DNA from: Escherichia phage p000y
Sequence record: MK047718.1
Length of the DNA: 64,000 bases
Reading direction: 5' to 3' (one strand)
Shown here: one piece after another, positions 3,278-13,222 of the stretch
Position numbering within the stretch: position 1 is the first letter of the stretch
Layout of the letters: each line of letters begins with the position of its first letter
Program-made: the position numbers and the translations under genes
Notes under the pieces: model-generated
What the model was told of the DNA's origin: nothing
The model's input: the letters and a program-made list of their open reading frames with translations, nothing else
The model's database searches: none

Positions 3278-3994
3278 ATGGGAAAACATAACACAATGAA
3301 ATATATCAAAGCCGCAGATTTTCAAACCGCATTTAAAGCAGTCAATCGTGAAATTTTAGAAAACCCGGAATTCGTAACTGATTCTCGTATTGGACGTTGT
3401 AATGAAATTGGGTCTATGACAGTAGTTGTTGACACTCCATCATCATTCAAAATGACCGACCCACGTATTAACCGCATCTCTTATGAATATGCCGAAGACT
3501 TCTGGAAGTTTATGATTTCTGGTGGTACCAACGCAGAAGAAGCGTTTAAGGCATATCCTAATGTCGCTAAATTTATTTCTAAACCAAAATCAGATGTTTT
3601 GCCGGCGAACTTCAACACTTTCTATGGTCCTCGCATTGCGGCCCAATTACCAACTCTTCTAAAAGAACTTAAAGAAAAACCTAACTCTCGAAGAGTTGTG
3701 TTCCAAATTCTAGAAAGTTCTGATCAGGCTTTGCTTGATTCGGACGAAACACTTGAATATCCATGTACTGACTCAGTAACTTATTATATTCGTGATGGTA
3801 AGCTTTATACCCACTGTCATATGCGTTCTCAGAACTGTGCTGTTGTTATGCAGTTGGATTTTTATCTCCAAGGAAAATTACTTCATTATATCGCTAACGA
3901 ATGCGGTGTAGAAGTTGGTGATTATACTCATACCATGGTAAGTGCCCATGTGTTTGAACGTGATTTTGATTATGTTAAAGGATTCCTTGACTAA
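3278..3994 (+). CDS. 42: Deoxypyrimidylate hydroxymethylase of the thymidylate-synthase family (gp42-like dCMP hydroxymethylase)
   Basis: PNSRR, PCTDSVTYYIRD (catalytic Cys) and MRSQN...QLD motifs align with T4 gp42 PDSRR, MCTNTVQYLIRD, MRSND...RND. Sits directly upstream of the uvsX block as in T4. Appears more diverged than neighbouring core genes. Confidence 0.75.
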   Translation: MGKHNTMKYIKAADFQTAFKAVNREILENPEFVTDSRIGRCNEIGSMTVVVDTPSSFKMTDPRINRISYEYAEDFWKFMISGGTNAEEAFKAYPNVAKFISKPKSDVLPANFNTFYGPRIAAQLPTLLKELKEKPNSRRVVFQILESSDQALLDSDETLEYPCTDSVTYYIRDGKLYTHCHMRSQNCAVVMQLDFYLQGKLLHYIANECGVEVGDYTHTMVSAHVFERDFDYVKGFLD

Positions 3995-4893
3995 TGGCTA
4001 TTTTCCGCGTACCAATCTTGAGTATGCGGTCTTATGAAACTGGACAGTATGCTATCCTTAAGGATGGCAACTTCCAACTTCATTTGCACCGTGCTAATCC
4101 GGGTGATGTGATTACATATCCACGTAATGCATCTGATATTAAAGAATGCGAACGTCTTTTCCCAGAATTTAAGTTTGTTCCATTATGGTATAAAGATAAC
4201 GCGTATAACACTCGTAAATATTTCTGGACTGAAAATGAATTTGTGGTTGATTCATTAATTGATTATTATGATTGTGATTTTCTAATCACAGATATCACTG
4301 GTTATGGCGGCGCTTTTGATGTGGAATTCAATTTCAATATCACTGCAGACCCTAATAAACCACGTTTTTATATTGATGAATTCTTAAAAACCGACATGTT
4401 GTCTGTTAATCGTTCACTTCAAACTACTGTGTTGAATGAACGTCAAAAAGAAGTGCTGGTTAACGCAGGTGCAGATGGTAATAAGATTATCGTAACGCAG
4501 AAAGTTATACGTCCTTCCATCATGCAGCGTCTTGTAGGTGATTTGGCTCCTATTCATCTAGATGGTATTTTTCATCCATTTCGAATTAGTGACCCATGTT
4601 ATCGTTTTGAACAAGTGGTTGAATGTGCAATTCAATTAGGTCAACCGCTTTATATAACCGATCCAAATAATAGCTTCGACAGAAATAAGTATCCTGAAGA
4701 AGCGCTGATTCGAATTTTTAAACCAACTAAAACTGAGTACTATCAAATTCTTAAAGGACGTCCGAAAATTCAATATTTCGAAAATCCTGAAGAAGTATTC
4801 CATCCAGGTCTTGGTGAGTTCATCTACTTTAATGCTTTAATTTCTTCGCCGTATAATATACCTAAATACGAAGATGTCGTAATCGAGGAATAA
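3994..4893 (+). CDS. Hypothetical protein (299 aa) in the position T4 uses for beta-glucosyltransferase
   Basis: TAATG-coupled to gene 42. No resemblance to T4 beta-GT that I can see. Contains a YYDCDFLITD (DxD-like) segment. Function is inferred only from position. Confidence 0.5.
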   Translation: MAIFRVPILSMRSYETGQYAILKDGNFQLHLHRANPGDVITYPRNASDIKECERLFPEFKFVPLWYKDNAYNTRKYFWTENEFVVDSLIDYYDCDFLITDITGYGGAFDVEFNFNITADPNKPRFYIDEFLKTDMLSVNRSLQTTVLNERQKEVLVNAGADGNKIIVTQKVIRPSIMQRLVGDLAPIHLDGIFHPFRISDPCYRFEQVVECAIQLGQPLYITDPNNSFDRNKYPEEALIRIFKPTKTEYYQILKGRPKIQYFENPEEVFHPGLGEFIYFNALISSPYNIPKYEDVVIEE

Positions 4894-4894
4894 A

Positions 4895-5443
4895 ATGGCT
4901 AAAATTATTTTAGTAGATGGCCCGGATAATGCTGGTAAAACAACTTTCATTAATGACATAATGGAAATTAGTGAAAGATATGTAAAGATTGATTTCCCTA
5001 AACGAACAGTTGATGGACGTTTCGATGTTAAGTCTCGAAATGAAGTTGGCTGTTTCGAAACGATGTTGAATTATTTAGACCCTACTAAGATTTATCTGTT
5101 AGACCGTGGATATATTAGTAACTGGGTTTATGGACGTATTCGACAAGATGCGGACTCGATTCTTGACGTTTATGAACAGGACTATGTTCGTCTTTGCCAA
5201 AACCATGATGTGTTCACAATTATTTTAACACGTAACGAAATGACTGAAAGTTTTGAAGACGACCTTATTACTTTGTCTTCATTCGGTTTTAATACAGTCA
5301 TTTCACATTTTGAAGAGTTTGCAATTCATAACAAAATCCAAACGTATCAATTACTTAATCATGATGGTGCTAACAAAGTTATAGGATTTAATGCAAGCGA
5401 ACGTAATTATTTGATTACAGAAATTATCAAATGGGCTCGTTAA
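4895..5443 (+). CDS. P-loop nucleotide kinase, thymidylate-kinase-like
   Basis: Walker A GPDNAGKTT and LLDRGYISNWVYG (TMK-like DR(Y/H)xxSxxxYxG) motifs; 182 aa. Confidence 0.5.
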   Translation: MAKIILVDGPDNAGKTTFINDIMEISERYVKIDFPKRTVDGRFDVKSRNEVGCFETMLNYLDPTKIYLLDRGYISNWVYGRIRQDADSILDVYEQDYVRLCQNHDVFTIILTRNEMTESFEDDLITLSSFGFNTVISHFEEFAIHNKIQTYQLLNHDGANKVIGFNASERNYLITEIIKWAR

Positions 5444-7057: not shown

Positions 7058-8500
7058 GTGGTAGAAATTATTTTGTCTCATCTAGTATACGACCAGGCTT
7101 ATTTTTCTAAGGTCTGGCCTTATATGGATTCTGAGTATTTTGAGCGTGGACCGGCAAAAAATGTCTTTAAAATTATAAAGAGCCACGTTAACGAATATAA
7201 TGCAATGCCATCTATCAATGCGTTAAAGGTGGCTTTAGATAACAGTTCTTTAACTGAAGCCGAATATAAAGGAACTTCAGACCTAATTGAAAAATTGGCT
7301 GATACTCCTGAAGACCATGAGTGGTTGGTTAAAGAAACTGAGAAATATGTCCAGCAAAAAGCGATGTATAATGCTACATCCAAAATCATTGAGATTCAGT
7401 CTAATGCTGAACTACCTCCAGAACAACGTAACAAGAAAATGCCTGACGTAGGAGCTATTCCTGATATTATGCGTCAAGCACTTTCAATTTCGTTCGATAG
7501 TTATGTTGGACATGACTGGATGGAAGACTATGAAGCACGCTGGCTTTCTTATCTAAATAAAGCACGTAAGGTCCCGTTCAAATTAAACATTCTTAATAAA
7601 ATCACCAAAGGTGGCGCAGAAACAGGTACACTGAACGTTTTAATGGCCGGTGTTAACGTTGGTAAATCTTTAGGCCTTTGTTCACTTGCTGCAGATTATC
7701 TTCAAACAGGACATAATGTTCTTTATATTTCCATGGAAATGGCTGAAGAAGTTTGTGCTAAGCGTATAGATGCAAACATGCTTGACGTATCACTCGATGA
7801 TATCGATGATGGTAACGTATCTTATGCTGAATATAAAGCCAAGATGGAAAAATGGCGTTCAAAAACAACATTAGGACGTTTAGTAGTTAAACAGTATCCT
7901 ACTGGTGGAGCTAATGCTAATACATTTCGTGCATTGCTTAATGAGTTAAAACTTAAGAAGAACTTTGTGCCATCTGTAATCATGGTTGATTACTTAGGTA
8001 TTTGTGGGTCTTGTCGTATCAGAGTTTACACTGAAAATAGCTACACATTAGTTAAAGCTATCGCAGAAGAACTTCGTGCATTAGCAGTAGAATCTGAAAC
8101 AGTTCTATGGACTGCAGCTCAAGTAGGACGTGCAGCATGGGATGCTTCAGACATGAACATGAGTGATATCGCAGAATCGGCAGGTTTACCAGCAACGGCA
8201 GATTTCATGTTGGCTGTAATTGAAACCGAAGAACTTGCACAAGCTGAACAACAACTTATCAAACAAATCAAATCACGATACGGCGATAAGAATAAGTGGA
8301 ATAAATTCCTGATGGGTGTACGTAAAGGCAATCAGAAATGGGTTGAGATTGAGCAAGAAGGCATGAACACACCTAACACAGTAAATGAAAACGCAGGTGC
8401 TCAGATGCGTCAGGCAGAGGTGAATCGTACGGAACGCGTAGGTAAAGCCAAAGCAACACGTGCTGACCTAGATAGCTTAGCCAATGAGTTAAAATTTTAA
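7058..8500 (+). CDS. 41: gp41 replicative DNA helicase (DnaB-like)
   Basis: GTG start with AAGGAG SD; 480 aa, near-identical to T4 gp41 over long stretches (MVEIILSHL..., GVNVGKSLGLCSLAADYLQ). Confidence 0.95.
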   Translation: MVEIILSHLVYDQAYFSKVWPYMDSEYFERGPAKNVFKIIKSHVNEYNAMPSINALKVALDNSSLTEAEYKGTSDLIEKLADTPEDHEWLVKETEKYVQQKAMYNATSKIIEIQSNAELPPEQRNKKMPDVGAIPDIMRQALSISFDSYVGHDWMEDYEARWLSYLNKARKVPFKLNILNKITKGGAETGTLNVLMAGVNVGKSLGLCSLAADYLQTGHNVLYISMEMAEEVCAKRIDANMLDVSLDDIDDGNVSYAEYKAKMEKWRSKTTLGRLVVKQYPTGGANANTFRALLNELKLKKNFVPSVIMVDYLGICGSCRIRVYTENSYTLVKAIAEELRALAVESETVLWTAAQVGRAAWDASDMNMSDIAESAGLPATADFMLAVIETEELAQAEQQLIKQIKSRYGDKNKWNKFLMGVRKGNQKWVEIEQEGMNTPNTVNENAGAQMRQAEVNRTERVGKAKATRADLDSLANELKF

Positions 8501-8506
8501 TAAAAA

Positions 8507-8525
8507 GGAGACTTCGGTCTCCTTT
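8507..8525 (+). terminator. CUUCGG-tetraloop hairpin downstream of gene 41 (weak U tract)
   Basis: GGAGAC-TTCG-GTCTCC followed by TTT. Confidence 0.4.
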
Positions 8526-8588
8526 CGGGGTTTACATCTTCCTCTAGGCATGATATGATGAACTTACACCAACCAAGAGGAAAACATT

Positions 8589-8963
8589 ATGAATATGTCT
8601 CAAGCAATTTTTACTGCAATCACCGAAAACACAACTGTTGAAGTAGTTTCTCCACTGGCAACCTACGTTATTCTTGCTCCTAAAACTATTGTATCTCGTA
8701 TGGAAAACATGGGCAAACGTATCGTACAAATAGTTGGAGCTGGAAATCAAAAACTTGATTATCTACGAACCATCAAAGCTTATGAACATTTCCAACTCGA
8801 AAAAGGTTCTCCTATCCAGGTAGAACTCGTAAATGGTGATATCGTTCGAGCAATGTTCCATCATTTCTATGCATTGAATGACCCATCTAAAGCGGTTCGT
8901 TTAATTGCATACGACGCAAACCAAAAAGAAATCAACGCAGATGTATCTAAATTACGTTTTTAA
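8589..8963 (+). CDS. Hypothetical protein (124 aa)
   Basis: ORF with an upstream early-promoter-like element and a purine-rich RBS. Confidence 0.5.
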   Translation: MNMSQAIFTAITENTTVEVVSPLATYVILAPKTIVSRMENMGKRIVQIVGAGNQKLDYLRTIKAYEHFQLEKGSPIQVELVNGDIVRAMFHHFYALNDPSKAVRLIAYDANQKEINADVSKLRF

Positions 8964-9018
8964 GTTTACTTCTCCAGTAGTTGTGTTATTATAGACCTAT
9001 CAACTACTGGAGAACAAA

Positions 9019-9336
9019 ATGAAAACCATCGATTGTAAAGCAGAATTTAAGATTTTTTATCACGGTTCAAGTAGTTCAGCTAACATCGAAAACATGCTTT
9101 GTCCTCCTGAGGAAACAGGAGTTCTGTCTGAAACTGGACGTAAGAAAAACTTGGATCGTGTATTCTTTACTGAAGATATCGGTTTAGCAAAGATTTATGC
9201 AGGACGAGCGGCACGCTCTTATGGAGGTGAACCACGTCTCTATCGAGTAATTTCTCCGGTAGACGTAGTTCAAATGAATAATACTAAAGGTGCTACAGTT
9301 TATCACGCTGAATGGGCATTTTGCGAGGAAATATGA
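9019..9336 (+). CDS. Hypothetical protein (105 aa) with a YHGS motif
   Basis: RBS GGAGAA upstream. Contains FYHGSSS and KIYAGRAA segments. Confidence 0.5.
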   Translation: MKTIDCKAEFKIFYHGSSSSANIENMLCPPEETGVLSETGRKKNLDRVFFTEDIGLAKIYAGRAARSYGGEPRLYRVISPVDVVQMNNTKGATVYHAEWAFCEEI

Positions 9337-9521
9337 GCAAATTAACTAAAATTACTTTTATTGGCTGGTTTAAAAGCGGTGAGATGTTCACTAAAGATAT
9401 CATGTTATCAGGTGATCGTGAAGAAATCGAGTGGGTTGCGGTACAACTTGCTGAAGTAAACAATGCATTAGTTAAAGCATTTATTAATGACGAGAAAGTT
9501 TTTGAAGCAGATTTTCGATAA
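9333..9521 (+). CDS. dmd: Dmd (discriminator of mRNA degradation), inhibitor of RnlA/LsoA toxins
   Basis: MSKLTKITFIGWFKSGEMFTKDI...EVNNALVKAFINDEKV closely matches T4 Dmd as recalled; GAGGAA SD; ATGA overlap with the previous ORF. Confidence 0.8.
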   Translation: MSKLTKITFIGWFKSGEMFTKDIMLSGDREEIEWVAVQLAEVNNALVKAFINDEKVFEADFR

Positions 9522-9534
9522 TTTTAAAATAACT

Positions 9535-9564
9535 GTTTACAAGCACCGCATACTGTGTTACTAT
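9535..9564 (+). promoter_or_regulatory. T4-type early promoter
   Basis: GTTTAC, 18-nt spacer, TACTAT; followed by an RBS and the lipoprotein gene. Confidence 0.5.
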
Positions 9565-9592
9565 CTTTCTATCAACTACAGAGGAAATTGAA

Positions 9593-9961
9593 ATGAAAAA
9601 ATTAATCGCTTTAGCAATGGTATTTGGATTAACCGGATGTGGTGCCCACGGCTTTATCCCTAATAACGTTGGCCAACTGATTTACAATCCGAATGTTAAA
9701 CAGTACGACCAACCTAAAGTTGAAGTGGAAGATCCGGTTACTGTAGGTAATCGAATGATTCAAGCTGATGCTCATGCTCAACGTTATCGTGATTCTGATA
9801 CTGTAGCATTGTCAAAAGAACAACGCGTTAAAGAACATTGTCTACAGGCTACTGAAATCGCATTCATTCGCTATGTTGAAACAACTGGTAAAGAGCCTAC
9901 CCAGAAACAAATCGCGAATAACTACGTCCAGTGTATTGAACGTTTAAACAAATTTAATTAA
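9593..9961 (+). CDS. Putative lipoprotein (122 aa)
   Basis: Signal peptide with lipobox LTGC (MKKLIALAMVFGLTGCGA); own early promoter at 9535-9564. Confidence 0.55.
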   Translation: MKKLIALAMVFGLTGCGAHGFIPNNVGQLIYNPNVKQYDQPKVEVEDPVTVGNRMIQADAHAQRYRDSDTVALSKEQRVKEHCLQATEIAFIRYVETTGKEPTQKQIANNYVQCIERLNKFN

Positions 9962-10022
9962 TTGGTTTACGCAAAAGTTAAAACAAGATACTATAAACAT
10001 AACAAATCAAGAGGAAATTAAC

Positions 10023-10271
10023 ATGGAATTATTCGTAGCTAGTTCAGTAGCAGTTTTAATCGCAGGTATTGGTTCAATCATCATTTACATGTTGCCTTGG
10101 GTAATCGCACTTATTCGTGGCACAAAAAGCACAACAGCAATCTTCTTTGTATCTTTACTCTTTAACTGGACGATGATTGGTTGGATTGGAACTTTAATTT
10201 GGTCTATCGTTGCCGAAAAGAAATCTGCTCAGCAGCCTCAACAAGTAATTATTATTCGCGAAAAAGAATAA
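10023..10271 (+). CDS. Small membrane protein (82 aa, two predicted TM segments)
   Basis: Hydrophobic segments VASSVAVLIAGIGSIIIYMLPWVIALI and AIFFVSLLFNWTMIGWIGTLIWSIV; RBS GAGGAA. Confidence 0.5.
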   Translation: MELFVASSVAVLIAGIGSIIIYMLPWVIALIRGTKSTTAIFFVSLLFNWTMIGWIGTLIWSIVAEKKSAQQPQQVIIIREKE

Positions 10272-10275
10272 ACTT

Positions 10276-10305
10276 GTTTACATTATAGATGGACTATAGT
10301 ATAGT
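10276..10305 (+). promoter_or_regulatory. T4-type early promoter with inverted repeat GGACTA/TAGTCC flanking the -10
   Basis: GTTTAC...ggactatagtatagtagtcc; upstream of sp. Confidence 0.55.
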
Positions 10306-10334
10306 AGTCCTATCAAATCAACTAAGGAGTTAAA

Positions 10335-10628
10335 ATGAAAAAGTTATCATTGGCAGCAATCTTACTTGCAGTATCATGTGCACCGGCTCCAGTTACGGCA
10401 GGTTATGATAAAGACCTCTGTGAGTGGTCAATGACTGCAAATCAAGAAGATGTTGAACAACAAATCTTCTCTGATATCATGAACATCACTAAACGAGACC
10501 GTCCTAATATGGTTAATAAAGTTGTTGAACAACTTAAGTCTGGTGGTATCATGCAGTACAACTATGTTTTGTATTGTGACCCTAATTTCGATAACAAAGA
10601 TATCGTAACCGAAATCACAGGTGAATAA
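10335..10628 (+). CDS. sp: Spackle (periplasmic inhibitor of the gp5 lysozyme, superinfection exclusion)
   Basis: Signal peptide plus AGYDKDLCEWSMTA...GGIMQYNYVLYCD matches T4 Sp as recalled; AAGGAG SD. Confidence 0.8.
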   Translation: MKKLSLAAILLAVSCAPAPVTAGYDKDLCEWSMTANQEDVEQQIFSDIMNITKRDRPNMVNKVVEQLKSGGIMQYNYVLYCDPNFDNKDIVTEITGE

Positions 10629-11280
10629 TATGATTTATTATATGCACAAAAACGCACCATTTAAATATGGTAAATTTCCTAATGCACAATGTTATAATAT
10701 AACGCCGAACGAAAATAATAACGGATATCATATTGGTGTAATTTTTGTAATTGTTAAAGATAACGAAATCATTGCCTGGGCCGATTTTAAAGGTACAACA
10801 TATGATGTTAATCCTGTGCCTTTCACATATTACAATATAATGGATTTGGCATATGATTATAATTGGTTTAATCATGACACGTTGGCTCATATTGAAGGTG
10901 TAGGATTTGACATCTCTTATTCTAGCTATTCATTATGTCCTATGAGCCGAGCTCACGGTAAAGATGTATCATATCTTTCAATTCGGAAACGTGTAAACTT
11001 CAAACGTAGTACAGAGTATGTTGGTGGACTCTTTGTTAAAGATAATAAAATAACCCGTATTAGTTATCCTTTAAGTGTAGGTCAAAAAGATGTTGACGTT
11101 GATTTGGACTTAACTGAAAATAACATTAATCGTATTGCTTCTGTATATTTTGATATCGATGAAAAAATTGTAGTGTGTGGATACGAATTACCACCTGAAG
11201 AAAAGGCTGAAGCAATTGAAGTCGAATTAGAAATTTCTGTTGATGACCAAATATTTAATGCATTTATGAATCGAGGTTAA
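10621..11280 (+). CDS. Hypothetical protein (219 aa)
   Basis: Overlaps the sp stop; same-strand packing; lies in the 61.x interval. Confidence 0.5.
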   Translation: MNNMIYYMHKNAPFKYGKFPNAQCYNITPNENNNGYHIGVIFVIVKDNEIIAWADFKGTTYDVNPVPFTYYNIMDLAYDYNWFNHDTLAHIEGVGFDISYSSYSLCPMSRAHGKDVSYLSIRKRVNFKRSTEYVGGLFVKDNKITRISYPLSVGQKDVDVDLDLTENNINRIASVYFDIDEKIVVCGYELPPEEKAEAIEVELEISVDDQIFNAFMNRG

Positions 11281-11281
11281 A

Positions 11282-11479
11282 ATGACTACTGCAATTTGCA
11301 CTGGTTCTAAAATTAGTGTTTTTACAAGTTTTGAAGATTATGAAGTTGTTTCAAAACACCAATGCCATATTAGCGTAAAAGCTAATGACGGTGTAATTTG
11401 GAATATTCCACAGTATGAAGGCACTACATATGAAGTCACAGATATAAATGGTAACAAAGCAATCTTTGTAATTGATTAA
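11282..11479 (+). CDS. Hypothetical protein (65 aa)
   Basis: Tightly packed ORF starting 2 nt after the previous stop. Confidence 0.4.
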   Translation: MTTAICTGSKISVFTSFEDYEVVSKHQCHISVKANDGVIWNIPQYEGTTYEVTDINGNKAIFVID

Positions 11480-11498
11480 ATATACTCAGGAGGTACCT

Positions 11499-11966
11499 AT
11501 GGGTATTATTAACACTGCAATAGATTCTGTTTACGCATATAAGTTTATTCGACTAATGCAAAAACCTTTTACCGAATGGAAAGCATACGAAGCCAAAATC
11601 ATCGATGAACGTGGAAGTGTTCTTAAACGCCCTTCCACTCCTGAAGAGAAAGCGGCTTATACACCTTTTCATGCTTCAGTTCGTTCAATGAAGCGAATGA
11701 TGAACACTGTTCCAGGTCTTAATGGAATGGCATCAATGATGTCTGCCTGGAGTGCTGTAGCATCCCGCTATAACATTACAGAAGAACAGCAGAAAGAAAT
11801 ATTTAAAGAACTCCCTTTATTTGAGGATATGGTGGCTGGTGATTCAGGTGGCAGCCCTCAAGCTATTGCATCAGGAACAACCACAGGTGCAGTCGTAAAT
11901 AAAGGTCCAGAACAAATTCCTTCCAAGAAAAGAAAGCGAATTAAAGTAAATATTAATAAGTTGTGA
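11499..11966 (+). CDS. Hypothetical protein (about 155 aa)
   Basis: ATG at 11499 preceded by a strong SD (CAGGAGG) with 5-nt spacing; track start 11472 is a TTG inside the previous ORF. Confidence 0.5.
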   Translation: MGIINTAIDSVYAYKFIRLMQKPFTEWKAYEAKIIDERGSVLKRPSTPEEKAAYTPFHASVRSMKRMMNTVPGLNGMASMMSAWSAVASRYNITEEQQKEIFKELPLFEDMVAGDSGGSPQAIASGTTTGAVVNKGPEQIPSKKRKRIKVNINKL

Positions 11967-12005
11967 TATGATGGCCTTATTAATTTAAGGCCTCTGGAGA
12001 ATACT

Positions 12006-13028
12006 ATGGCTGAATGGATAGATAATGAATTTGCTTATCGTGCGTTTTCTCACCTCCCTCGTTTTAGACAAATCAATAATTCAAGCACATTTAAATTAAC
12101 GTTTCGTTGTCCAGTTTGTGGCGACTCCCAGACAGATGCAATGAAAGCTCGCGGATGGTATTATGGCGGTACTCCTGGTAATGTACATTGCTATAACTGC
12201 CAATACCACAATACAATTTCCGGATACTTAAAAGAGTATGATGAAGAGCTTTATCGCGAATATCTAATGGAAGTTCGTAAAGAAAAAGCTAGAATGGAAC
12301 CGAAGATTGAAAAGGTTCCTGAACATAAACCAGAACCGGAGAAAAAGACTATAAATTCTTTGCCGTCTTGTTCTCGTCTGGACAAACTGCCTGAAGAGCA
12401 TCCTATTGTGAAATATGTTAAGTCTCGGTGTATTCCTAAAGAATCGTGGAATAGATTATGGTTCACATTAGAATGGCCTAAATTGGTCAACAAGATTCAA
12501 CCTGGTACGTATAAGAAAGAGATTCCCGAGCCACGTTTAGTGATTCCTATTTTTAATAAAGACGGGAAGGCCGAGTCATTCCAAGGACGTGCACTTCGTA
12601 AAGATGCTCCTCAGAAATATATCACTATTAAAGCGTTTGAGTCTGCAACAAAAATTTATGGTGTTGAACGTGTTAAGGAAGGAGACGTCTGGGTAATGGA
12701 AGGCCCTATTGATAGTTTATTCATACCCAATGCAATCGCTATTACAGGCGGCTCAATAGATTTAGATGTGGTACCATTTAAAGAACGTCGGGTATGGGTA
12801 ATGGATAATGAACCTAGGCATCCAGATACTATAGCTCGCATGAAGCGATTAGTTGATGCAGGCGAACGTGTCATGTTCTGGGACCGAGCTCCATGGAGAT
12901 CAAAGGATGTGAATGATATGGTAATGAAAGAAAATGCAACACCACAAGAAATTTTAGAATATATGAAACAGAATATTTCAAGTGGGTTGCATGCTAAAAT
13001 GAGATTATCTCGTTATTCGAAGATTTAA
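12006..13028 (+). CDS. 61: gp61 DNA primase
   Basis: 340 aa; N-terminal zinc ribbon CPVCGDS...CYNC; TOPRIM-like VMEGPIDS and DNE motifs; synteny with 41. Confidence 0.9.
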   Translation: MAEWIDNEFAYRAFSHLPRFRQINNSSTFKLTFRCPVCGDSQTDAMKARGWYYGGTPGNVHCYNCQYHNTISGYLKEYDEELYREYLMEVRKEKARMEPKIEKVPEHKPEPEKKTINSLPSCSRLDKLPEEHPIVKYVKSRCIPKESWNRLWFTLEWPKLVNKIQPGTYKKEIPEPRLVIPIFNKDGKAESFQGRALRKDAPQKYITIKAFESATKIYGVERVKEGDVWVMEGPIDSLFIPNAIAITGGSIDLDVVPFKERRVWVMDNEPRHPDTIARMKRLVDAGERVMFWDRAPWRSKDVNDMVMKENATPQEILEYMKQNISSGLHAKMRLSRYSKI

Positions 13029-13222
13029 ACAAGCCCTATAATAGCAAAGGCCAAATCAACTACAGTATCCAATGGAACAGAAGGAACTATAATACCATGG
13101 GCAACTAACAATGGTGCAATCCCGAAGTTCCATGAAATAATGCCACCTACAACTATTGCAGCGATAGCAGTTTTCTTTTTATTGCCTTTAATAGCGTTGA
13201 TTAACGATGGAAGTTTAAACAT
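13025..13222 (-). CDS. Small hydrophobic membrane protein (65 aa) on the opposite strand
   Basis: Fills the 61-56 gap exactly. Minus-strand start is preceded by TAAGGAGAT (strong SD). Two hydrophobic segments. Confidence 0.4.
   Translation of the reverse strand: MFKLPSLINAIKGNKKKTAIAAIVVGGIISWNFGIAPLLVAHGIIVPSVPLDTVVDLAFAIIGLV

Follow-up and report, generated by a model that had tools for sequence, protein, structure and literature searches.

The 41–61 region of Escherichia phage p000y: a probable early array of small anti-defence and superinfection-exclusion genes

The stretch of DNA analysed here (the window) comprises 64,000 nucleotides of Escherichia phage p000y (sequence record MK047718.1). 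Downstream of uvsX and gene 40 it contains an accessory region, positions 8589–11966, which lies between the replication genes 41 and 61. This locus is very probably the 41–61 accessory region of a Mosigvirus (RB69-type) T-even phage, an early array of small, non-essential genes for anti-defence and exclusion. An initial annotation of the sequence had described the interval as hyperplastic and had proposed the unnamed neighbours of dmd and sp as candidates for further exclusion or anti-defence functions. The underlying observation is real and mostly correct, with its details confirmed in part, and the interpretation is supported: gene 61.2 is the characterised anti-DarT gene adfA, the protein with two transmembrane segments is Imm, and in RB69 and T4 the interval also holds TifA, an inhibitor of ToxN. 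Caveats to the candidate idea are the absence of tifA from the window, the R164 allele of adfA, and the product of gene 61.1, which looks head-related rather than like a classical cytoplasmic inhibitor. The activities of Dmd, Imm, Sp, AdfA and TifA are taken from the literature.

Gene content and early promoters of the interval

The source of the window belongs to the genus Mosigvirus and shows ~98% identity to phage RB69. In a megablast search with positions 8400–12100, 152 phage records were matched with at least 80% coverage, all of them Mosigvirus (RB69-like), the best with 98.1–98.6% identity. The interval consists of nine open reading frames (ORFs), all on the + strand and all conserved. 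Because all of them strongly match phage protein families (PHROG, E 5e-29 to 2e-131), they are genes and not chance ORFs. The bounds assigned initially are sound, position 8589 being the ATG of the first ORF past gene 41 and position 11966 the stop of the last ORF ahead of gene 61. The RB69 annotation (NC_004928, RB69p042–p030) supplies names for every gene of the interval, and between RB69 genes 41 and 61 the gene order is as in the window (ORF041c, ORF040c, dmd, imm.1, imm, sp, 61.2, ORF033c, 61.1), with 98% DNA identity. Five ORFs, and not four as first counted, had been left unnamed. The genes of the interval and its flanks are:

7058–8500, + strand: gene 41, replicative helicase (DnaB-like); left conserved flank, 99.8% identity to RB69 gp41
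8589–8963, + strand: ORF041c-like, 124 residues; phrog_10668, E 3e-85
9019–9336, + strand: ORF040c-like, 105 residues; minimal Arr/KptA-like ADP-ribosyltransferase fold
9333–9521, + strand: dmd, 62 residues, antitoxin-like inhibitor of RnlA/LsoA; PF17587, E 2e-19; phrog_2102, E 6e-32
9522–9534: site of RB69 tifA (61.4), gene absent from the window, gap in the alignment to RB69; RB69 counterpart at 2626–2838 of the fetched RB69 locus (L001)
9593–9961, + strand: imm.1-like lipoprotein, 122 residues; DUF5481, E 4e-9; LTGC lipobox
10023–10271, + strand: imm, 82 residues, superinfection immunity membrane protein; PF14373, E 1.5e-15
10335–10628, + strand: sp (Spackle), 97 residues, periplasmic; PF25676, E 1e-42
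10630–11280, + strand: adfA (gene 61.2), 216 residues from the first ATG, R164 allele; PF23813, E 9e-120
11282–11479, + strand: ORF033c-like, 65 residues; phrog_3249, E 4e-33
11499–11966, + strand: gene 61.1, intact long form, 155 residues; phrog_2086, E 8e-74
12006–13028, + strand: gene 61, primase; right conserved flank, 99.4% identity to RB69 gp61

The call of Dmd is correct: the 62-residue protein matches PF17587 with 70.1 bits (cutoff 27) and is 62% identical to a Tequatrovirus Dmd. Its likely start is at 9333, where the ATG overlaps the stop codon of ORF040c as ATGA. T4 Dmd binds and inhibits the toxins RnlA and LsoA (cited in PMC9391042), and by analogy the window protein would bind and block these endoribonuclease toxins. 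Immediately past the dmd stop, the window shows a gap of ~206 nt in the alignment to RB69, and a tblastn search with RB69 TifA over the whole 64-kb window returned nothing below E 4.9. The tifA gene is polymorphic within Mosigvirus, RB69-type tifA being found in 69 records versus about 154 Mosigvirus records. Srikant et al. (2022, PMC9391042) identified T4 61.4 as TifA, the ToxN inhibitor, noted that Dmd (anti-RnlA) and AdfA (61.2, anti-DarT) are encoded near tifA and that the region "may be an anti-TA island" (TA, toxin–antitoxin), and named other genes of the region as antitoxin candidates.

AdfA matches PF23813 over the entire profile (398 bits, positions 1–211 of 211). It differs from RB69 AdfA by three substitutions, with residue 164 (RB69 numbering) unchanged; this residue is arginine, as in wild-type RB69, and His164 is not present. 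In the work of the LeRoux laboratory (PMC11257639), wild-type RB69 AdfA (R164) does not bind DarT1 whereas the R164H protein does; H164 AdfA binds and neutralises DarT1, R164 is reported as non-neutralising, and the RB69 relatives Bas46 and Bas47 carry R164. In its active allele AdfA would thus bind the DarT toxin, and the R164 allele found here would be inactive on DarT1. The window phage holds a reduced set, without tifA and with an adfA allele inactive on DarT1. As it has no tifA, the phage should be more toxIN-sensitive than RB69, and as its adfA is R164, DarTG1 should block it, barring compensation by another factor.

Three adjacent genes carry features of envelope proteins, namely a lipobox (imm.1), two transmembrane segments (imm) and a signal-like segment (sp). 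The product of 9593–9961 had rightly been called a lipoprotein; it belongs to the Imm.1 family (DUF5481, 37.3 bits against a cutoff of 27), with an LTGC lipobox at residues 13–16 within a hydrophobic segment spanning residues 4–22. It is 33% identical to Tequatrovirus Imm.1, and the LTGC lipobox is present in both. The protein described as having two transmembrane segments does contain two hydrophobic segments (residues 1–34 and 40–59) and is the known classical superinfection-immunity protein Imm (PF14373, 57.2 bits, cutoff 27.9); its identity to Tequatrovirus Imm is 65%. Spackle was also correctly assigned (PF25676, 145 bits over residues 1–96 of 96) and has an N-terminal hydrophobic segment at residues 4–24. 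Together, imm.1 (lipoprotein), imm (inner-membrane protein) and sp would make up an uninterrupted envelope module for the exclusion of superinfecting T-even phages, in which Sp, going by its described activity, would act as a periplasmic inhibitor of the gp5 lysozyme of the incoming phage. The imm.1 and imm genes are adjacent both in the Tequatrovirus RB9 (522–1161 of the fetched locus, between genes 43 and 42) and in Mosigvirus (between dmd and sp), and among the eight genera compared below only Mosigvirus has them in the 41–61 interval. Since the two genes are still paired at different genomic sites, they move as a unit; the pair seems to relocate as one cassette, and this joint movement argues that the lipoprotein Imm.1 works with Imm.

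The first gene of the interval, ORF041c, has only two homologue clusters among 5.8 billion proteins and is restricted to Mosigvirus, being absent from the seven other genera examined. It contains no hydrophobic segment, and no informative domain or PDB match was obtained; weak matches to 3-dehydroquinate dehydratase, phosphoheptose isomerase and HSBP1, far below the cutoffs, were rejected as chance. A homologue of ORF033c is found directly upstream of 61.1 also in Dhakavirus and Gelderlandvirus. Beyond the interval, a hydrophobic ORF of 65 residues (13025–13222, - strand) overlaps the end of gene 61 and is probably a small membrane protein. Its position is that of RB69ORF029w and of an RB9 gene labelled dam.1, and a similar reverse-strand ORF is annotated also in Dhakavirus and Gelderlandvirus.

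To locate early promoters, the window was scanned with the T4-type pattern GTTTAC-N16-19-TANNNT. The pattern occurs 26 times, compared with 3.9 ± 2.2 expected (6.7-fold), a number reached by none of 100 shuffled sequences; 22 of the 26 matches are on the + strand. With a count so far above the shuffled expectation, the motif itself is real. Five + strand matches (P1–P5) fall in the interval, each intergenic and 30–60 nt ahead of a start codon, and two stable hairpins flank the interval on either side:

8504–8525, + strand: stem-loop immediately past the stop codon of gene 41, UUCG loop on a 9-bp stem; folding energy -12.8 kcal/mol, z -3.2
8530–8559, + strand: P1, early-promoter-like (GTTTACA..TGATATGAT), consensus match upstream of ORF041c
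8964–8992, + strand: P2, early-promoter-like, consensus match upstream of ORF040c (with dmd)
9535–9564, + strand: P3, early-promoter-like, consensus match upstream of imm.1
9965–9994, + strand: P4, early-promoter-like, consensus match upstream of imm
10276–10305, + strand: P5, early-promoter-like, consensus match upstream of sp, the last ahead of gene 61
11973–11994, + strand: stem-loop between the 61.1 stop and the ribosome-binding site of gene 61; -12.0 kcal/mol, z -2.8

Five of the nine ORFs thus have a match to the early-promoter consensus (a consensus match only) within 60 nt upstream. The initial statement that each gene has its own early promoter goes too far: dmd is coupled to ORF040c, and no match precedes adfA, ORF033c or 61.1, which, starting from sp, follow the preceding gene after gaps of 1, 1 and 19 nt. 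Where such promoter-like sites do not intervene, the genes of the interval are separated by 1–19 nt or overlap. The interval would be transcribed as five early units (P1–ORF041c, P2–ORF040c–dmd, P3–imm.1, P4–imm, and P5–sp onward), the P5 transcript running from sp through adfA, ORF033c and 61.1. For the T4 orthologues of dmd, 61.4, sp, 61.2 and imm.1, RNA and protein are both early, and for T4 61.1 the RNA is early (supplement of PMC9697503).

None of 200 shuffled sequences was as stable as the stem-loop at 8504–8525, which does not satisfy the T-run rule of the terminator scan. The sole match of that scan, at 9104–9121, falls within ORF040c and was rejected. No Rfam families were found in the interval; the only Rfam match at E <= 1, to a miRNA model (26 bits against a gathering score of 66), was treated as chance. 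The stem of the hairpin at 11973–11994 (GGCCTTA/TAAGGCC) is the same in the window and in RB69 (at about 5278–5299 of the RB69 locus), and its 12-nt loop in the window and in phage mogra, TTATTAATTTAA, exactly equals the reverse complement of that in RB69, TTAAATTAATAA. RB69 and the window differ here by a small inversion of the hairpin loop, just ahead of the ribosome-binding site of the primase gene.

Plasticity of the interval among T-even-related genera

For comparison, regions downstream of gene 41 were taken from eight further phages, so that eight genera, Mosigvirus included, were represented, and each region was searched with the window proteins. Gene 41 is found in every fetched locus and gene 61 in every locus extending that far, except that of the Acinetobacter phage, where no match to gene 61 was obtained; in the RB69-like phage mogra only the first 198 residues of the gene 61 product are matched. 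The interval between the two genes ranges from about 0.5 kb to 3.7 kb, and the genes inside it are mostly different. In Tequatrovirus and Dhakavirus dmd, tifA and sp are present; RB9 has no adfA, and Dhakavirus retains only a remnant of it. Karamvirus, Slopekvirus-like and Acinetobacter phages hold mostly unrelated small ORFs, and in Aeromonas phage AsFcp_4 gene 61.1 stands alone between 41 and 61. With genes 41 and 61 conserved and the content between them differing so strongly among eight genera, the description of the interval as hyperplastic holds.

The anti-TA island of T4 (dmd, tifA/61.4, sp, adfA/61.2, 61.1) occupies the same position between genes 41 and 61 and is early transcribed. 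It has dmd, sp, adfA and the C-terminal part of 61.1 in common with the window. Unlike the window, T4 does not contain ORF041c, ORF040c or ORF033c, has imm.1-imm between genes 43 and 42, has tifA, and has only a short 61.1 of 54 residues.

The same variability would be expected if the interval were a recombination-tolerant dumping ground between essential genes, with no shared anti-defence theme, so that proximity to dmd or sp predicts nothing. Such a view is consistent with the almost wholly different gene content of the genera, the location of imm.1-imm between 43 and 42 in Tequatrovirus and in 41–61 in Mosigvirus, the presence of the ADP-ribosyltransferase gene in another plastic region in Slopekvirus and Tulanevirus, and the mixture of envelope, cytoplasmic and head-related functions. 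It is nevertheless unlikely, since dmd, tifA and adfA of the orthologous interval each inhibit a different toxin–antitoxin defence, imm.1, imm and sp sit together and concern exclusion, and a conflict role for five of the nine ORFs is hard to obtain by chance. Some points also weigh against the array of anti-defence and exclusion genes as favoured here: all function assignments for the window phage rest on homology, the promoters were called from consensus matches only, the missing tifA makes the "island" smaller than in RB69, and for the adfA allele present here a failure to bind DarT1 has been reported. Both the locus and the "anti-TA island" concept have already been published (2022, PMC9391042) and their novelty is therefore low; the HIDEN-SEQ preprint does not cover the genes of the interval.

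ORF040c, a minimal ADP-ribosyltransferase fold

The family of ORF040c comprises 609 phage records, the hosts being Escherichia, Klebsiella, Acinetobacter, Aeromonas and Vibrio, and some of its members are labelled "putative ADP-ribosyl transferase" by their depositors. In an alignment of 38 members, which are 60–88% identical to the window protein, the invariant residues include H15-G16, E38, G40-R41, K43-N44-L45, F49, Y60, R63 and E103. Compared with gp41, ORF040c shows identities of 88.6% versus 67.9% to Dhakavirus and of 68.4% versus 58.6% to the Acinetobacter phage, and it is thus more conserved than the replicative helicase. Such conservation across hosts points to a universal target.

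Direct searches with ORF040c gave no Pfam match at E <= 1, no NCBIfam match and, with phmmer, nothing in the PDB, and a profile built from the close phage homologues alone did not reach Arr. A profile search of 1.84 billion representatives revealed 221 distant relatives, and the profile broadened with these has Arr as its sole PDB match (E 0.025), with Arr H19 aligned to H15 and Arr Y49 to the invariant F49 of ORF040c. In many of the relatives the ORF040c-type domain is C-terminal or internal in proteins of up to 3,924 residues, and Pfam names the matching region Arr-ms (PF12120) above the cutoff, as in the relatives P0129, P0133 and P0147 (26.9–29.4 bits on the ORF040c-homologous region, cutoff 25). 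The structural model of ORF040c shows an ADP-ribosyltransferase fold with the catalytic histidine on strand 1; Arr is its best Foldseek match, and both Foldseek and the sequence profiles place Arr above KptA. Residues 33–42, with the invariant GRxKN motif, are modelled at low confidence. Backed by four independent lines, ORF040c is a minimal Arr/KptA-like ADP-ribosyltransferase fold.

Like ORF040c, Arr (PF12120; PDB entries 2HW2 and 9IAF) is a small single-domain ADP-ribosyltransferase, and its YHG(T/S) motif aligns with the catalytic histidine. The two differ in size (143 residues in Arr, 105 in ORF040c), and the alignment spans residues 13–82 of Arr only. Arr Tyr49 is replaced by the invariant Phe49; near Arr D84, beyond the end of the alignment at Arr residue 82, ORF040c has N88, which is variable in the family. 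In contrast to Arr, ORF040c is a phage early gene and shows no sign of an antibiotic substrate. ORF040c is not an Arr orthologue, because it has no direct Pfam match and aligns with Arr residues 13–82 only. Nor is it a Tpt1: Tpt1/KptA proteins consist of two lobes, with about 180 residues and an RNA-binding N-lobe, whereas ORF040c has a single lobe.

In the large relatives the ORF040c-type domain is accompanied by ART-PolyVal, NUDIX, GNAT and Toprim domains, and some of these proteins (P0129–P0227) bear two different ADP-ribosyltransferase domains. The multidomain relatives match the architectures of polyvalent proteins, which are injected conflict effectors of phages and plasmids (PMC9503650). 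In two genera the ORF040c gene is located outside the 41–61 interval, near srd and rnlB:

2501–2818 of the fetched locus of Klebsiella phage VAC13 (L012): ORF040c homologue of Slopekvirus, few genes upstream of srd
2501–2839 of the fetched locus of Aeromonas phage phiAS4 (L013): ORF040c homologue of Tulanevirus, few genes upstream of srd

The VAC13 accessory region also holds RNA ligase 2, and that of phiAS4 an HD phosphohydrolase. From these locations it follows that the coupling to dmd is specific to Mosigvirus and Dhakavirus.

Several of these results speak against ORF040c as a dmd-coupled transferase, namely the lack of a direct Pfam match, the PDB profile E-value of only 0.025, the phenylalanine aligned to Arr Tyr49, the acidic residue E103, which is not conserved in the non-phage relatives, and the linkage to dmd, which is not general. 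The domain may bind NAD and, early in infection, ADP-ribosylate a conserved host or nucleic-acid target. Alt, ModA and ModB modify RNA polymerase, and AcrF11 modifies Cas8f. By analogy with these, ORF040c could possibly be a protein-modifying effector, the fourth T-even ADP-ribosyltransferase, with a conserved host or defence protein as its target. This tentative reading would agree with the invariance of E103 in the phage family, giving an H..E pattern as in macromolecule-modifying transferases, with the very high cross-host conservation, which suits a universally conserved target, and with the occurrence of relatives within large polyvalent-type multidomain proteins. On the other hand, the closest relatives Arr and KptA act on a small molecule or an RNA phosphate and not on proteins, no substrate-recognition loop is assignable from the model, and the segment with the GRxKN motif is the one modelled at low confidence.

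A role of ORF040c as a KptA/Tpt1-type RNA-end processor, carrying out NAD+-dependent phosphate removal or capping on RNAs cut by RnlA, LsoA or ToxN, is improbable. Repair of this kind would complement Dmd and TifA, and a role of KptA in phage RNA repair has been reviewed (PMC9503650). The invariant basic residues R41, K43 and R63 are compatible with it, as are the position of ORF040c immediately upstream of dmd, here and in Dhakavirus, and the distance of about 1.4 kb between the homologue and RNA ligase 2 in Slopekvirus. However, the 105 residues of ORF040c cover the NAD-binding lobe only, Foldseek and sequence profiles favour Arr over KptA, and in the window phage ORF040c shows no linkage to an RNA ligase. 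The RNA-binding N-lobe of Tpt1, which carries most of the catalytic Arg-His-Arg-Arg tetrad, is missing. A macromolecule-modifying effector is thus ranked slightly above a KptA-like RNA-end enzyme as the putative function of ORF040c.

Gene 61.1 and the N-terminal region of gp23

Gene 61.1 is the only gene of the interval that is retained in almost all genera examined, and it lies just upstream of the primase gene wherever both are found. Its product has about 155 residues in most genera and about 54 residues in Tequatrovirus and Dhakavirus. The window and phage mogra have one intact ORF of 155 residues. The RB69 record (4805–5271 of the fetched locus) lacks one nucleotide of an A-run (GAGAAAGCG to GAG-AAGCG), and this 1-nt deletion splits the gene into ORF032c and gp61.1; either an error of sequencing or a genuine frameshift of the laboratory stock may be responsible.

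Residues 107–137 of 61.1 (LFEDMVAGDSGGSPQAIASGTTTGAVVNKGP) align in BLASTP with residues 64–94 of RB69 gp23 (LTEAEIGGDHGYNAQNIAAGQTSGAVTQIGP), with 15 of 31 residues identical and E 2e-5, and the profile of the 61.1 family matches gp23 residues 38–102 with 33 bits (E 2.5e-11, the set searched comprising ten head proteins). The C-terminal half of 61.1 is thus homologous to gp23 residues 38–102, across the gp21 cleavage site. No similarity was found to gp24, gp20, gp21, gp22, gp67, gp68 or the bodies of the internal proteins. The related part of gp23 reaches from the end of the propeptide through the gp21 site and takes in the mature N-terminal arm, with the identity lying around LTE|AEIGGDHG...IAAGQTSGAVTQIGP (the bar denotes the cleavage site). 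The HK97-fold body of gp23 is absent from 61.1, the homology ending at gp23 residue 102 or before. In T4, gp21 cuts gp23 after Glu65, exactly at LTE|A. In 61.1 the sequence L107-F-E109|D110 aligns with this site and with I-K-E|D of T4 61.1; a [LIMV]-x-E motif is present at the aligned position throughout the family alignment, and E109 itself in at least 90% of 35 members.

The short 61.1 proteins resemble the internal proteins of the T4 head at their N-termini. T4 61.1 (3467–3631 of the fetched T4 locus, L015, - strand; the short form of 54 residues) begins with MKTFKEFIKE|DMVAGDSGG... and the Dhakavirus protein with MKSFKEVMNE|DMVAGD..., while T4 IPIII and IPII start with MKTYQEFIAE and IPI with MKTFKEF. 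The first ten residues of IPIII are a capsid targeting sequence (CTS), in which residues 4 and 7 are important to targeting, and residues 8 and 10 to processing by gp21 (PMC9026906). T4 61.1 has F4, F7, I8 and E10, and both the T4 and the Dhakavirus starts end in I/M-x-E ahead of the conserved body. The long 61.1 of the window has L-F-E at the matching junction and, instead of a CTS, an N-terminal domain of 109 residues, beginning with MGIINTAIDS. In contrast to the internal proteins, the retained part of 61.1 is a 46-residue gp23-related peptide and not a globular basic protein. As judged from the alignments, the short form would be a targeting sequence fused to a gp23-like peptide, and the long form would have a helical domain of 109 residues in place of the targeting sequence.

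From the CTS-like start and the gp23-like cleavage region we infer that 61.1 goes into the prohead and is a substrate of gp21. It would be a head-targeted protein nearly universal in Straboviridae, and gp21 would cut it at [LIMV]-x-E|(D)MVAGD. The short T4 protein would reach the prohead by means of its internal-protein targeting sequence; the long protein would be carried into the prohead and cut at L-F-E109|D, with release of a basic peptide. This capsid-N-arm-like peptide of ~45 residues would be left in the head and might be injected with the DNA. Against such a route stand the lack of an N-terminal CTS in the long 61.1 of the window, the poor AF2 model (pLDDT 63, pTM 0.39, with a disordered C-terminus), the T4 proteome time course, in which the gp61.1 protein was left unclassified (supplement of PMC9697503), and the absence of a canonical late promoter, TATAAATA, from the interval and from the region upstream of T4 61.1. 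A 7/8 match to this late-promoter box, TATAAATG, occurs at 11443–11450, 49 nt upstream of the 61.1 start.

Alternatively, 61.1 might not be a head protein at all, and might serve as a primase–helicase accessory or as a decoy of the gp23 N-terminal region that blunts a host capsid sensor. Its position directly upstream of gene 61 in every genus in which both were found, its retention as the sole gene between 41 and 61 in Aeromonas phage AsFcp_4, its early transcription in T4 and the end of its gp23-like stretch just where the Gol peptide of gp23 begins would fit such a role, which we nevertheless regard as rather unlikely. In the T4 and Dhakavirus forms the N-terminal domain is swapped for a ten-residue sequence nearly identical to the CTS of the internal proteins, with the junction exactly at x-E|D, and this exchange at a conserved site is difficult to account for if prohead targeting and gp21 cleavage are of no importance. 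A decoy for Lit in particular was rejected: the Gol peptide that activates Lit is formed by gp23 residues 93–122, and the strong homology of 61.1 to gp23 stops at residue 94, the weaker profile alignment reaching only to residue 102. In the open-access literature, no paper was found on the function of gp61.1 or linking 61.1 to the capsid or to targeting.

Taking the two proteins together, a tentative proposal is that 61.1 is a head-targeted partial duplication of the capsid gene and that ORF040c is a fourth T-even-type ADP-ribosyltransferase, coexpressed with dmd and acting in counter-defence or host takeover. The locus as a whole illustrates the way in which counter-defence and exclusion genes of T-even phages are gathered in a single early, fast-changing region. 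Its remaining interest lies in ORF040c and 61.1, two conserved uncharacterised proteins with a specific, testable predicted biochemistry. ORF040c is a compact candidate NAD-utilising enzyme, the conservation of which points to a universal target, and 61.1, which bears the signatures of a prohead-protease substrate, would, if this is confirmed, add a component to the well-studied T4 head.

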